Below, piece after piece: positions 5,947 through 61,712 of a stretch of 64,000 nt of DNA (its first letter is position 1; each line of letters starts with the position of its first letter). The stretch lies in the NCBI GenBank assembly GCA_951406725.2, contig OX597823.1, positions 43,152,001-43,216,000 on the forward strand, in the 5' to 3' direction. The notes below the pieces were generated by a model. It was not told where the DNA came from. It worked only from the letters and a program-made list of their open reading frames with translations, and did no database searches. Source of the stretch: Octopus vulgaris. Taxonomy: Eukaryota. Position numbers and translations under genes: made by a program.

Positions 5947-6004
5947 ATATATATATATATATATATATATAATCAAAATAAGCAACAAGTATATCCGAGG
6001 TAAT

Positions 6005-6090
6005 GTGGTACAATTGTTTCATGCTACTTCATTTTATTAAACACTGTAAGTTTTACATTAGTTTTAAAATGTCGAGCAATCTTCAGCCAC
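6005..6090 (-). ncRNA. Type I hammerhead ribozyme, intact core
   Basis: Minus strand: GTGG-CTGAAGA-TTGCT..(long loop)..AGCAT-GAAA-CAATTG-TA-CCAC; stem I GUGG/CCAC, GUA cleavage triplet. Confidence 0.8.
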
Positions 6091-6297
6091 TTATAGAAAT
6101 TTTCCAATCAAACGGACAATGCACATTCTTATTTCTATTTCGTTTGCCAACATTATAAAGAGGGTAGATATACAGACTATCATGTTCTTAAGAATGAAAT
6201 CAACCTCTCTGTCTGTGTATCTACCCTCTTTATAATGTTGGCAAACGAAATAGAAATAAAAATGTGCATTGTCGGTTTGACTGGAAAATTTCTAAAA

Positions 6298-6383
6298 GCG
6301 GCTGAAGATTGCCCGACATTTTCAAACTGATGTAATACTTACAGTGTTCAATAAAAGGAAGTAGCATGAAACAATTGTACCAT
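6298..6383 (+). ncRNA. Type I hammerhead ribozyme, intact core, weaker stem I
   Basis: GCGG-CTGAAGA(6302-6308)-TTGC..GCAT-GAAA(6368-6371)-CAATTG-TA-CCAT. Confidence 0.72.
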
Positions 6384-6498
6384 ATTACCTCGGATATACT
6401 TGTTGCTTATTTTGATTATAATCCCCCTCCCATTGATTTATATGGATAATACCATACAAAATTCTGGTGCCTTTGTCTTAAGTACCATATTCATCTGA

Positions 6499-6682
6499 TC
6501 TATCTATCTATCTATCTATCTATCTATCTATCTATCTATCTATCTATCTATCTATCTATCTATCTATCTATCTATCTATCTATCTATCTATCTATCTATC
6601 TATCTATCTATCTATCTATCTATCTATCTATCTATATATATATATATATATATATATATATATGTGTGTGTGTGTGTGTGTG
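6499..6682. repeat. (TCTA)n(TA)n(TG)n compound microsatellite
   Basis: Direct reading. Confidence 0.95.
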
Positions 6683-58000: not shown

Positions 58001-58387
58001 CAGTCAATGTTTTTCTTGAACGGTTGACTACCTTCGGTCTCTCCTGTAGGATGGGAGACAATGTGTGTCCCTTGGCAGGAACGTACAAAGATTCCTTCTA
58101 GATAATAGACACCCTTTCTCTCACTCTCTAACACTTTGAACACTATACCAAACTATATTTAAAGGAAACTTTAAAGAAAGATCTCCAGACCTGTTCTTGA
58201 ACCACAGACAAAAAATAAACTGTTTCCATTTGAAATGTTTATAAATTTTTCTGTTATATGATAAAATGAGAGTCATCGAAACCGGTCATATTCTTTTCAT
58301 ATATTTTCTTTGAATAGTTCTTATTGAAATCCCTCTTGAATTGAAATGACTTAGAGAAACGTCTATGCTATTTCCACCTCCGTCTTC
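55023..58387 (-). mobile_element. Decayed Penelope-like retroelement (Neptune-like) with inverted pseudo-LTRs
   Basis: 55023-55280 and 58130-58387 are diverged inverted copies, each abutting (TA)n and each holding a decayed HHR (TGATAA..GATGA/TCRTC-GAAA-CYGG-TH). Confidence 0.9.
55860..58040 (-). pseudogene. PLE reverse transcriptase plus GIY-YIG endonuclease pseudogene
   Basis: Motifs in order: VVNRS..LT..Q..ILGKRLKFTP, DKGSTVVIMD, FYGLLKI, RPII, LYTNIP, MGTKVASTYTNL, RYLVDCF, FLDI, YKPTD..YL...SCHP, Cys linker CGRTNC, and NYIGQT..RM..H. Confidence 0.9.
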
Positions 58388-58879
58388 TATATATAAAAAT
58401 TTGATTTGTATAGATCTTTAATCTTTTTTAAATATATATATATATATATATATATATATATAAATAACCTATAACTATATCTATATAATCGCAAAGCCGG
58501 TTTGGAAAGATTCCTGCGAGGTAGAGAAACAGACAGTGAGGGAGTAGAGGGAGAGCGAGAGAGGAAGTATGAAAGAGAGATAGAGAGAGAATCACATAGA
58601 AATGTACAAGTTTCTATCAGTAAATCAGTAAATAGAATAATAGAAAACAAGCACAAATATATCACACGAGAAGAAAATATGTAAAACAAACGTGCATCTA
58701 ACTTACAGTATGACTAAAAACCGGGAGAGGAGATGTGGCAGAAGCAGTAGCGAAATATCTTCATGTAATACAATGCATACATTTAAATTGATAGGGTTTC
58801 TCTAAGGATGTGGGCAGTATATATCAGCACAATGATTTAGATTTCTATGAGAAATGGGATATTATCTAGATGTTTCTGA

Positions 58880-59830
58880 CAGCCATTTTTTATCATATGT
58901 AGGGTACACCCACAATAACAAGAACAATTCTCGCGTTAAGATGCCACGTCTTTTGTATTTCAATTTCCAGGTCCTTATGTTTAATTAGAGTGGTTGTATA
59001 CTGTCAACTTAACGTGACAGTCCCTTAAGGGAATTATACCACCACTATTTAGCCCTAGGAAGCATCGACGCTTCCTGTCGGCCTTGACACATTTCCTGTG
59101 TCCTTATATATTTACGAAGGGGAGACAAACACCCCCAACAGCTGTGTCCATATATATTTACGAAGGGGAGACAAACAACCCCAACAGCTAGGCCTGCATC
59201 TAGATACATGCATGCTTCAGGGTCTTGCTCATCATCAGTCTAGAGTAGCAAGGCCTGCTAGCTGAAGATATTTGTCTAGACTTCGTAAATATATATATAT
59301 ATTTATTTTCAGTGAAGTTTATTTTGTCAGGTATATTTTTATCAGTGGGAACACTTACATCTATTAGTCTACAAGTATTTTCTTCTTTGTCTTCAATGAC
59401 TATTTCTCGCCGATTCTCTTGGATCATTCTGTCGGTGTTAACTGGAAAATCCCGGAGGATAGTGACATTTTTACCTTTAACGACTGGCTCAAGTTGATGT
59501 TCATACCAGTAAGCAGGATTGCTCATTTGTTGTGTTTACATATTTTCCAACGTTAATACTGTCCTACCCTATCGTGGCGATATTTGTATTCGCTTGGTGT
59601 CACCACAGCACATCCCGAGACGAGATGGTCTATTGTTTCATCAAATTTATCCCAGAATCTGCATTTAGAGTCAGAGCCGTATTGAAGAACGTTAGCCTAG
59701 TAGTTTTTGGTAAGTTTTGATATTGTGCTGCCAATATGAAACCTTCCGTCTCCGCTTCCAGTCCTGAGCTTCTCAGTCATTGATGAGTTATTGCTTGGTC
59801 TACATCAGCATTTCGACTACGAAAACAGTA
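58880..59830 (-). pseudogene. Older R4/Dong-type LINE C-terminal fragment (Zn knuckle + RLE), interrupted
   Basis: CRF..ETIDHLVSGC..Y..RHDRV, WYEH..LRDFPVNTDRMI.ENRREIV..DK...C.LIDVSVP.D.N, then KHKDLEIEI..TW after an insert at 58986-59300. Confidence 0.82.
58986..59300 (+). mobile_element. Short element of the 17155 family with hairpin end and antisense hammerhead (59199-59244)
   Basis: Minus strand: TCTAGA-CTGATGA-TGAG caaga CCCT-GAAG-CATGCATG-TA-TCTAGA, enclosed by inverted tatatttacgaag/cttcgtaaatata; 46-bp tandem duplication at ~59097-59189. Confidence 0.65.
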
Positions 59831-60596
59831 CATGGATAACAAGCCATACAGAAGTGGACATACGAAAGTGAATAAATGTAGTTTAAGACGATGTCTTATT
59901 TATTTTGTCTGCATCATTCGTCCATCACAAAATACATTTATTCACTTTCGTATGCCCACTTCTGTATCACTCATTATCCATGTATTATTTGCTCTCGGCC
60001 CTATATTTTCCCCAGATTTCGTGCGCATCGCCAGTATGAGAAGTCTCTCAATCTTATCATTCATGGTGCAAAACTGAATACTACCATCTGGTTGATAACT
60101 GATGAAAAATTAGGGACGTTCTGTGTCTGTCTTCCGTTCGTTTGTGTACTCGGTATACGTTATACGATTTTTACCTTACGTTTGTTTATTTACAATACAT
60201 CTTTTCAATTATCAAGTAACCGAACGCAATGCACCCCGGCTTTTACTAACAGTAAGTTTTATACATATGTGCGTGTCTATTTGTAGCCTTTCCTCTTTCT
60301 CCTTTTTAATTTTTTATTCCTTCTTACTTCTATTTTTAGCCTTCCTTCTTTCTCCTTTCCCCTTCATCCCTTCCCTTGTTTTCTCTCTGTCCCTCTCTCC
60401 CTCCTTCTCTCTTGCCATCTTTCTCTTCTGCCTGCTGCTGACACGTGACCCGTTTGTGTACACAGTATACATTATACGTTTTTACATCTTGTTTGTTTAT
60501 TTATAATATTTTTTCATTTATATACATATATAACTATGTGTGTGTGTGTGTTTGTGTATATATATATATATATATATATAATAATAATAATAATAT

Positions 60597-61712
60597 TAGG
60601 GAGTAAATCCAAACTTACAGGGAAAAATTAGATTTAGGATTAAATCTAATTTTACAGTATAAATATATATATTAAATCAGAGATAAACCACTATTAGGCA
60701 AATCAAACAGTAAAAAACATAACCCAATAGATAGAAATAAAATTAATTAATATAATATACGAAATATATAAAATATAAAATTTAAAATTTAAATTATTTA
60801 AATTAAAAGTTAGAATTTAAAAAGTTATTTAAATTATTAATTTATACTTAAAACGTTATACATATATATATATAAATATATATATATATATTTTTATTTC
60901 TATTTTTATTATTATTATTATTATTTTAATTAAAAAATTTTTTTTTTTATAAATATAACTATCAAAAAGTATTAAGAAGTTTAATATAAGATAAAAAGTA
61001 AAACCACTACGATCGTTTCATGCCCATAACCTAATTCGAATAACAATAATTTAAATTCAATTAATAATTCGAATTATGGTTATAGTCAATCTTCAGGTTA
61101 ATGATAAGACTTAAATAAATAAGCAAAAATATTTAAACAATATTTTTAAAGAAATAAATAAAATAATAATTTTTATTATAAAAAACTCTATTATTAAACT
61201 AGAAACTTTAACGATTATGATTATGTCATACAATCGATTATAATGTTAAATATTAATTTTTAAGTATTAATTTTTAAGGTAAGAAACCCACAAATAATCT
61301 AATCTCAGTTATAGTCAATATCTAATTACATAAATATTTTTAAAAATATATATATATTTTACAAAAAATTTTAATTATTGTTATTCGAATTAGGTTATGG
61401 GCATGAAACGATCGTAGTGGTTTTACTCTTTATCTTATATTAAACTTTTTAATACTTTTTAATAGTTATATTTATAAAAAAAAATAATAATAATAATAAA
61501 AATAAAAATAATAATATATATATATATATAAACTTATAAGTATTAATTAATAATTTAAATATTTTTTTAAATTTTAACTTTTAATTTAAATAATTTAAAT
61601 TTTGAATGTTATATTTTATATATTTCGTATATTATATTAATTACTTTTATTTCTATTTTTACTGTTTGATTTGCCTAATAGTGGTTTTATCTCTAATTTA
61701 ATATATATATAT
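60597..61712. mobile_element. Large AT-rich fold-back pLTR-type element (arms ~60663-61056 and ~61367-61712)
   Basis: gataaaccactattaggcaaatcaaacagtaaaaa and ccactacgatcgtttcatgcccataacctaattcgaataacaat each have reverse-complement partners in the right arm. Confidence 0.88.
61004..61100 (-). ncRNA. Type I hammerhead with intact core and very long stem II
   Basis: Minus strand: TAAC-CTGAAGA-TTGACTATAACC..GGTTATGGGCAT-GAAA-CGATCG-TA-GTGG. Confidence 0.72.

Follow-up and report, generated by a model that had tools for sequence, protein, structure and literature searches.

Hammerhead ribozyme motifs in a 64-kb stretch of the Octopus vulgaris genome lie, very probably, mostly in truncated 3' ends of protein-coding Penelope-like elements

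A stretch of the Octopus vulgaris genome (assembly GCA_951406725.2, contig OX597823.1, positions 43,152,001 to 43,216,000; 64 kb in all and referred to below as the window) contains 15 sites at which an earlier note, made from the letters of the sequence, had recognised hammerhead ribozyme (HHR) motifs, and which it had read as a diverse set of non-autonomous elements mobilised by Penelope-like elements (PLEs). Our analysis makes it very probable that most of these motifs are minimal HHRs in the 3' ends of protein-coding PLE families, that the copies seen here are likely dead, 5'-truncated insertions at TA tracts, and that two protein-free head-to-tail families likely use the same machinery. 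The window is microsatellite-rich, with about 35% GC, and comes from a genome of 2.8 Gb. We grouped the 15 sites into 12 elements (families A to K, with C represented twice), traced the families by searches of the octopus's own genome, used 104 genome stretches, and sought relatives in 1.65 Mb of loci; the inverted repeats of the window were mapped with masked self-BLAST. The elements are given below by window coordinates and strand, with the sign after each core position marking its strand, pLTR standing for the pseudo-long terminal repeat of a PLE, and the PLE types being those assigned by motifs further on.

5620..5945, + strand: family B, a single copy with a minimal HHR (core at 5816+), whose G12 box reads CAAA.
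5968..6495, both strands: family A fold-back, two 5'-truncated Hydra-type PLE 3' ends head to head (cores at 6086- and 6302+), with a long helix II.
17155..17440, - strand: family K, a decayed copy of a 348-nt head-to-tail HHR unit (core remnant at 17338-), with its 3' end at TA.
22035..22214, - strand: family C, a short pLTR copy of a young Neptune-type PLE (core CCGACGA, U4C, at 22170-), with TA on both sides.
29545..29690, - strand: family D, a short pLTR copy, sister of C (core CUGUAGA, U at position 6, at 29672-), with TA on both sides.
34570..36958, + strand: C-type copy with a long CA-rich 3' untranslated region (UTR) and pLTR (core at 36839+), about 74% to the UTR of family C copy L316.
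39345..40163, - strand: family E, a Hydra-type PLE 3' end including the end of the GIY-YIG frame, with a tail (core at 39570-, mutated to CUCAUGA).
47569..47601, + strand: site F (core at 47569+), both HHR boxes without proper stems.
54687..54950, both strands: family G fold-back, two very short Hydra-type PLE 3' ends (cores at 54781- and 54796+), with TA on both sides.
55024..58390, - strand: element H, a decayed Neptune-type PLE in place, with a 3' pLTR at 55024-55333 (core at 55150-, U3-A8 core type), reverse transcriptase (RT) thumb and GIY-YIG remnants at about 55819-56891, and an inverted pLTR at 58068-58390 (core at 58258+).
58988..59322, - strand: family I, a 5'-truncated copy of a 365-nt head-to-tail HHR unit lacking an open reading frame (ORF) (core at 59238-; A15.1 reads G).
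60580..61714, - strand: family J fold-back, the AT-rich 3' end of a likely Hydra-type PLE (core at 61096-), with a tail at 60580-60660 and an inverted partner at 61367-61714.

Upstream walks from the HHR ends reach PLE coding sequence, and for this reason 11 of the 15 sites are identified as 3' ends (pLTRs) of the protein-coding families A, C, D, E, G, H, and J. In these families a single ORF encoding RT and then GIY-YIG is collinear with the HHR end, the 3' ends are common to the copies, and the 5' ends are variable. For family A, 20 non-fold-back copies share from 0 to about 1460 nt of upstream sequence, five of them reaching the C-terminus of GIY-YIG, and for family E the end of the GIY-YIG frame is present in the window copy itself and in most of 15 others. 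Copies of family G extend from 0 to more than 2 kb upstream, two of them (L240 and L241) reaching the ORF and another (L321) holding an RT frame between its 3' pLTR and an inverted pLTR. A 2.7-kb AT-rich UTR leads to the ORF in one copy of family J (L358); a fixed 5' end for this family was considered and rejected, since longer copies were found.

Family C is young (96-99% identity), has a 2.5-kb CA-rich UTR, and reaches an ORF in four of ten long copies. Its copy L316 (3200-8520 of its stretch; G000:C3 near 11.56 Mb) consists of a pLTR, an 806-codon stop-free frame which runs through the HHR of that upstream pLTR, the CA-rich UTR, and a further pLTR, forming a pLTR-ORF-pLTR partial tandem with an 85% direct repeat; this arrangement was not seen for A, D, E, G, H, or J in the loci sampled. 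The CA tract at 34659-36099 of the window is a PLE 3' UTR of the C type rather than a plain microsatellite. Family D, the sister of C, has one ORF-linked copy, and element H, the linker of which is decayed, is joined to C by tblastn (E=5e-9).

Published diagnostics separate Hydra-type PLEs, with CxCX5C and DKT, from Neptune-type PLEs, with CX2-5CxxC and DKG (PMC8557442). The first pair of motifs is found in A, G, and J, to which E is joined by a similar C-terminus, and the second assigns C, D, and H (the last through its tblastn link to C). We class A, E, G, and J as putatively Hydra-type and C, D, and H as putatively Neptune-type; the clades are given by motifs and not by a tree, and this is one of several points that weigh against assigning the sites to protein-coding PLE families. 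The others are that the RVT_1 (E=6e-4) and GIY-YIG (E=0.008) matches of the C ORF are both below the Pfam gathering cut-offs, that three Hydra-type fragments gave no relevant Pfam match, that J and D have one ORF-linked copy each, and that most C and D copies are very short and begin near the HHR, so that some of them may conceivably derive from a short master resembling a short interspersed element (SINE).

Insertion at TA is apparent from the copies as a whole, with TA following 24/41 3' ends of A, 48/61 of G, 31/39 of J, 6/19 of E, and 14/49 of I (background 6%). In the window, 10 of the 12 elements end no more than 3 nt from (TA)4 or longer (background 7.5% within 15 nt), so that the (TA)n neighbourhood reported in the earlier note holds except for I and F. 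The same note had recognised PLE-type minimal type I HHRs with PLE-style inverted partners, which the ORF-linked longer copies bear out. Its description of the elements as non-coding has to be amended for H, with RT and GIY-YIG remnants between the pLTRs, and for E, with its GIY-YIG frame end. Non-autonomous PLE-mobilised elements are retained for family I and probably for K; as the longer copies of the families that hold 11 of the sites reach PLE ORFs, those 11 sites show the outcome which the note had itself named as speaking against its proposal, unique truncations of PLEs.

Given the intact or consistently variant cores in the family alignments and the descriptor counts from a genome sample, HHR motifs as a class far exceed what chance would give. 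Minimal type I HHR motifs, mostly mutated within the window, are identified at 14 of the 15 sites. A box-1-like heptamer and a GAAA-like box are present at all 15, no more than about 90 nt from where each had originally been placed; both canonical boxes are kept at six sites only (6086, 6302, 47569, 54781, 54796, and 61096), and the full HHR descriptor is passed by 6086- alone. The remaining site, F at 47569, has neither proper stems nor a relative in the 1.65 Mb of loci, no own-genome search having been made for it, and is possibly a chance match. For family B, for which likewise no own-genome search was made, these loci hold one relative (L100), in which both boxes are intact.

Among the checks proposed in the earlier note, the Rfam scan was negative, with no hammerhead in the window at gathering score and no hammerhead family at E<=10 among the matches listed (150 of 279), and the comparison with shuffled sequence depended on the descriptor. 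A strict descriptor without unpaired bases gave zero matches. A generic relaxed descriptor gave six matches in the window, compared with a mean of 3.1 and a maximum of 6 in 12 shuffles, which is not above chance because most window copies are mutated. A descriptor with a palindromic stem III, composed only after the families had been seen, gave five matches in the window with one mismatch allowed (three of them sites of the earlier note), compared with a mean of 0.1 in 30 shuffles, and when applied to 40 independent stretches of the genome, each of 10 kb, it found 15 matches with intact cores, compared with 0 in each of six shuffles. Rough extrapolation from 15 intact-core motifs per 400 kb leads to about 1e5 per genome, which would place this genome among the HHR-richest.

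Matches to the window families in this 400-kb random sample numbered seven for A (at five loci), seven for D, three for C, two for E, and one for G. Further minimal HHR families with intact cores, several of them of the U3-A8 type, were present in the random stretches L170, L172, L175, L181, L188, L196, L198, and L203, and the window is therefore typical of the genome; L188 and L198 each hold one HHR pair, inverted and on opposite strands. An additional HHR-like motif that the earlier note did not contain lies beside the family E copy at 40180-40380 (-), with the core CUGAUGA at 40368, GAAA at 40304, a 6-bp stem II base, a palindromic stem III, and a weak stem I; its 3' side extends to the TA tract at 40164.

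The family alignments, in which identical segments were merged and both arms included, revealed that stems I and II pair in every family with relatives, with sequences that differ between families, in agreement with the original view of several families unrelated outside the core. Stem III is palindromic, from AC to GT, in all families with relatives, and the NUH triplet of a minimal type I HHR is likewise in place. Stem I is weak in J. In several families another unpaired base precedes G12, and helix II is enlarged by inserts of 40-70 nt. Stem III of family A varies between CAATTG and CGATCG; this was considered as covariation but not counted, because CpG decay accounts for it. The palindromic stem III suggests dimeric folding, for which the help of a protein may be needed, and ribozyme activity is a prediction only.

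Both boxes are canonical in 34/36 segments of A, 35/42 of J, 27/42 of I, 29/53 of G, and 8/16 of E. Family C carries C at core position 4 (U4C) in 20/21 segments, with one of 21 canonical, and family D carries U at core position 6 in 54/56, with position 7 taking all four bases across subfamilies and one of 56 canonical. Since position 6 of D is near-fixed while position 7 varies freely, selection on this core in its non-canonical form is suggested. U4C has been described as a weakened, tolerated natural variant, and changes of A6 as strongly reducing (PMC3088659). Whether PLE hammerheads must cleave at all could be tested on the young family C with its stop-free frame and on the nearly fixed variants U4C of C and U6 of D.

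Inverted repeats are found in five of the 12 elements (A, E, G, H, and J, with 8 of the 15 sites), to which the many long inverted repeats of the earlier note are reduced, the remaining elements being without them. The A fold-back of the window has a tail on its right arm only (about 6419-6495) and TA at its left, the E copy has a short inverted partner at 40103-40163, the inverted pLTRs of H are 74% alike, and the G fold-back has its tail on the right arm, with stem I of 54796+ lost at the junction. For wider counts we used 49 loci of I, 46 of J, and 25 of G, dropping duplicates and loci without the 3' end in view. Where the query was not built on a fold-back, fold-backs are a minority of the copies: 14/30 for G, 9/42 for I, 9/32 for J, 4/16 for E, 4/21 for an upstream set of G, and 1/20 for C. 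Spans in the counted set range from 129 nt to 1.9 kb, and that of L321 is about 2.8 kb. The families in this set each end at their 3' side in either of two ways, one of which includes a tail of 55-90 nt. Among the 40 fold-backs found with queries that did not require this tail, exactly one arm was tailed in 37, none in one, and both in two (p ~1e-8 against the 50% ceiling for independent arms). In the G set with the tail in the query the one-tailed fraction was 13/14, and among the family I fold-backs it was 7/9.

The possibility that the fold-backs are themselves non-autonomous ribozyme mini-elements, whose hairpin RNAs would self-cleave and be re-inserted as a unit by PLE proteins, is one we consider highly improbable. 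Full-length fold-back matches were readily retrieved for G (40/40 scored) and A, and many copies are short and non-coding, with TA at both ends; these sets, however, were selected by the query, and queries with one arm returned mostly single copies, whose 5' extents vary continuously as far as the ORF. The fold-back junctions differ in nearly every copy, and in the right arm of the window G fold-back the junction has destroyed stem I. Furthermore, forcing the HHR stems in a read-through fold-back would cost 77 kcal/mol for G and 105 and 108 kcal/mol for A, compared with 0.2, 0.0, and 16 kcal/mol in a single arm. In a read-through transcript the ribozyme is thus predicted to be buried in the duplex, pairing with its antisense copy to give a double-stranded RNA that would not be cleaved, and the original claim of transcripts both self-cleaving and largely double-stranded defeats itself.

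Inverted ends at TA also resemble Tc1/mariner miniature inverted-repeat transposable elements (MITEs), and long inverted repeats without a noted HHR likewise occur in the window, so that one could see in the fold-backs hairpin DNA elements of this kind, or post-insertion products of DNA repair, with the HHR likeness incidental. The arms, however, are 3' ends of RT-coding elements, collinear with PLE ORFs in A, E, and G; they are unequal through the tail on one arm and mostly occur singly, and the HHR stems vary among families yet keep their pairing. A fixed internal junction with symmetric ends common to the copies, as expected of a MITE-like unit, was not found in the fold-backs counted. We regard this explanation as extremely improbable.

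Because fold-backs occur in only five of the 12 elements, have differing junctions, and would bury the ribozyme, they are not a fixed transposing unit and are likely one-off insertion scars. How PLE inversions form has been listed as an open issue (PMC8557442). For a lizard PLE in vitro, the protein, predicted to be dimeric, cuts and extends both strands of AT-rich DNA, with two adjacent start sites bounding the tail (PMC11167929), and by analogy the octopus PLE proteins may cut both strands at AT-rich targets and reverse-transcribe from two adjacent RNA sites, which would give tailed or tailless ends. Both broken ends would then be extended, one from each start site, and incomplete cDNAs joined at whatever length had been reached would leave a fold-back. 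If family I is an RNA copied by PLE RT, as discussed below, the one-tail rule (37/40) would show that PLE inversions arise when a dimer uses its two start sites to prime the two ends of a double-strand cut, and in any case it offers a countable, testable prediction for their origin. Set against the reading of one-off scars are the facts that the A fold-backs (13/14) and the first G set were chosen by a fold-back query and that the A spans cluster at 427-473 nt, a clustering which by itself leaves some room for re-amplification of a fold-back subfamily.

As far as can be judged from sequence, family I holds as a non-autonomous, retrozyme-like unit without an ORF, and family K is probably another such unit. 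The sequence past the 3' end of I is the sequence found about 90 nt upstream of the start of the window copy, and of 30 long copies, 11 extend on their upstream side into the end of the preceding unit and 10 on their downstream side into the following one, five doing both, with a period of 365 nt. The longest stop-free frame in the tripled unit is 59 amino acids. The unit has 41% GC, and its circle has a predicted fold of -116 kcal/mol with 65% paired, compared with -78 +/- 5.5 for mononucleotide shuffles, which are a weak control. The longest over-unit copy starts 6-7 nt upstream of the predicted cleavage site, and the window copy has a private 46-nt duplication (59096-59189). Contigs from four sequencing runs, possibly of RNA, cover the I unit piecemeal, a result with no bearing on whether it is expressed or circular. 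The window copy of K is a decayed relative of a 348-nt tandem dimer, L122 (period 348, 81.5%), with the same HHR layout, and both motifs of the dimer are decayed. For both I and K the HHR architecture looks PLE-minimal, with an unpaired base after A9 and a palindromic stem III, and neither window copy is a fold-back.

The window copy of I lies within a remnant of a long interspersed element (LINE) with a restriction-enzyme-like (REL) endonuclease at 58880-59535 (-), which the insertion split, apparently with a few bases lost and without target duplication. We considered whether the site noted at 59199 belongs to this LINE and rejected this, since the LINE frame resumes beyond the insert.

One may ask whether I and K are satellite-like repeats derived from a pLTR and spread by tandem duplication or recombination of DNA, without an RNA step. 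One locus does hold K as a tandem dimer, segmental duplication accounts for some I copies (L030/L033/L034 and L226/L227), and local tandem amplification is discussed in a preprint on vertebrate retrozymes (bioRxiv 10.64898/2026.07.22.740005). Family I, however, has copies on many chromosomes that are 91-98% identical, that end at two fixed 3' positions but vary at the 5' end, and that carry inverted partners of the one-tailed kind; its window copy, moreover, interrupts an older LINE frame, so that we find such a DNA-level origin very improbable. We lean instead towards family I being a protein-free 365-nt RNA, probably circular, copied for more than one round by PLE RT and inserted with the full PLE signature; the template would have been a tandem or circular RNA.

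Several observations speak against this account of I and its extension to K. As a criterion for an active retrozyme, two or more successive HHR-bearing units have been required (bioRxiv 10.64898/2026.07.22.740005), and none of the 11 over-unit copies of I has two complete HHRs. TA adjoins the 3' ends of I less often than those of G or J (fractions above), neither I nor K resembles in sequence any of the PLE ends tested, the 400-kb random sample held zero matches to I, and the tandem of K was seen at one locus only. If the account is true, family I would be direct genomic evidence that PLE machinery retrotransposes animal retrozymes, beyond their descent from pLTRs. The tie that family I provides between a retrozyme-like unit and PLE integration is one of mechanism, not of co-occurrence.

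Every component described here has a published counterpart, namely HHRs in pLTRs, inverted partners, TA targeting, and PLE-linked retrozymes, and the whole is an ordinary, dense example of published PLE anatomy; the comparisons that follow apply to the passages of the cited papers that are drawn on here. In the account of Craig et al. (2021, PMC8557442), a standard PLE insertion is truncated 5', adjoins an inverted copy, bears a tail at one of its ends, and is targeted to (TA)n. The endonuclease-bearing (EN+) Hydra and Neptune PLEs of that paper agree with the octopus families in all of these points, the inverted partner lying on the 5' side, and also in the HHR close to the 3' end and in the clade motifs, but the tails are about 55-90 nt here and 30-40 nt there, and the 3' UTRs here are long (about 1-2.7 kb), one of them CA-rich.

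Metazoan PLE HHRs (Cervera and De la Pena 2014, PMC4209133) likewise comprise many unrelated families per genome, with the unpaired base after A9, the palindromic stem III, and the U3-A8 variant, and are likewise mostly single motifs of truncated PLEs, with opposite-strand pairs 100-700 bp apart. Relative to these, the octopus motifs differ in the second unpaired base before G12, the helix II inserts of 40-70 nt, the near-fixed U4C and U6 of C and D, both abundant families, and the number per genome, roughly 1e5 by extrapolation here and thousands there. In PAc, a Poseidon PLE of Anolis (Frangieh et al. 2024, PMC11167929), the tail is likewise delimited by a pair of adjacent RT start sites, both strands are cleaved and extended at AT-rich DNA, and the HHR and the beginning of the reading frame overlap, which is also the case in family C; PAc belongs to a different PLE clade, and the passages of that paper used here do not address the formation of inverted pairs.

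Metazoan non-LTR retrozymes (Cervera and De la Pena 2020, PMC7229834) resemble I and K in their head-to-tail units, here of 348-365 nt, with one type I HHR each, and share with them the 41% GC, the highly paired circle, which here is predicted only, and the co-occurrence with PLEs (PMC7229834; bioRxiv 10.64898/2026.07.22.740005). In contrast to these retrozymes, the HHR here is PLE-minimal, I consists of dispersed 0.9-1.5-mers with no arrays seen among its copies, arrays not having been searched genome-wide, and I bears the PLE integration marks of two start sites and one-tailed inversion. Mobilisation of retrozymes by PLEs has been proposed (PMC7229834), and a link to PLEs has been argued from co-occurrence and pLTR homology, with cleavage in 1/9 dimers (Li et al., bioRxiv 10.64898/2026.07.22.740005). 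We found no description of these families or of cephalopod retrozymes in the literature searched, which did not take in Dfam, Repbase, or supplements, where they may be listed, and the main text of PMC13282606 makes no mention of ribozyme, hammerhead, or retrozyme, its repeat library lying outside the search.

Several features of the window and its loci stand apart from the HHR elements. Among the contigs from the four sequencing runs at L214, the commonest differences were A>G and T>C, for which family polymorphism and editing are indistinguishable. Long inverted repeats without a noted HHR lie at 2076-2319, 15888-16236, 17560-18511, 59823-59990, and 8642-10255, of which 17560-18511 resembles what we take to be a decayed transposon with terminal inverted repeats, and 8625-8743 is a common repeat with 11 matches in 1.35 Mb. 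A REL-endonuclease LINE remnant is also present at 3895-4200 (+) and, like the one at 58880-59535 (-), is presumably R4/Dong-like by its motifs. A PIF1-like helicase fragment at 12377-12820 (+) (PF05970, E=1e-19) is probably the remnant of a Helitron.

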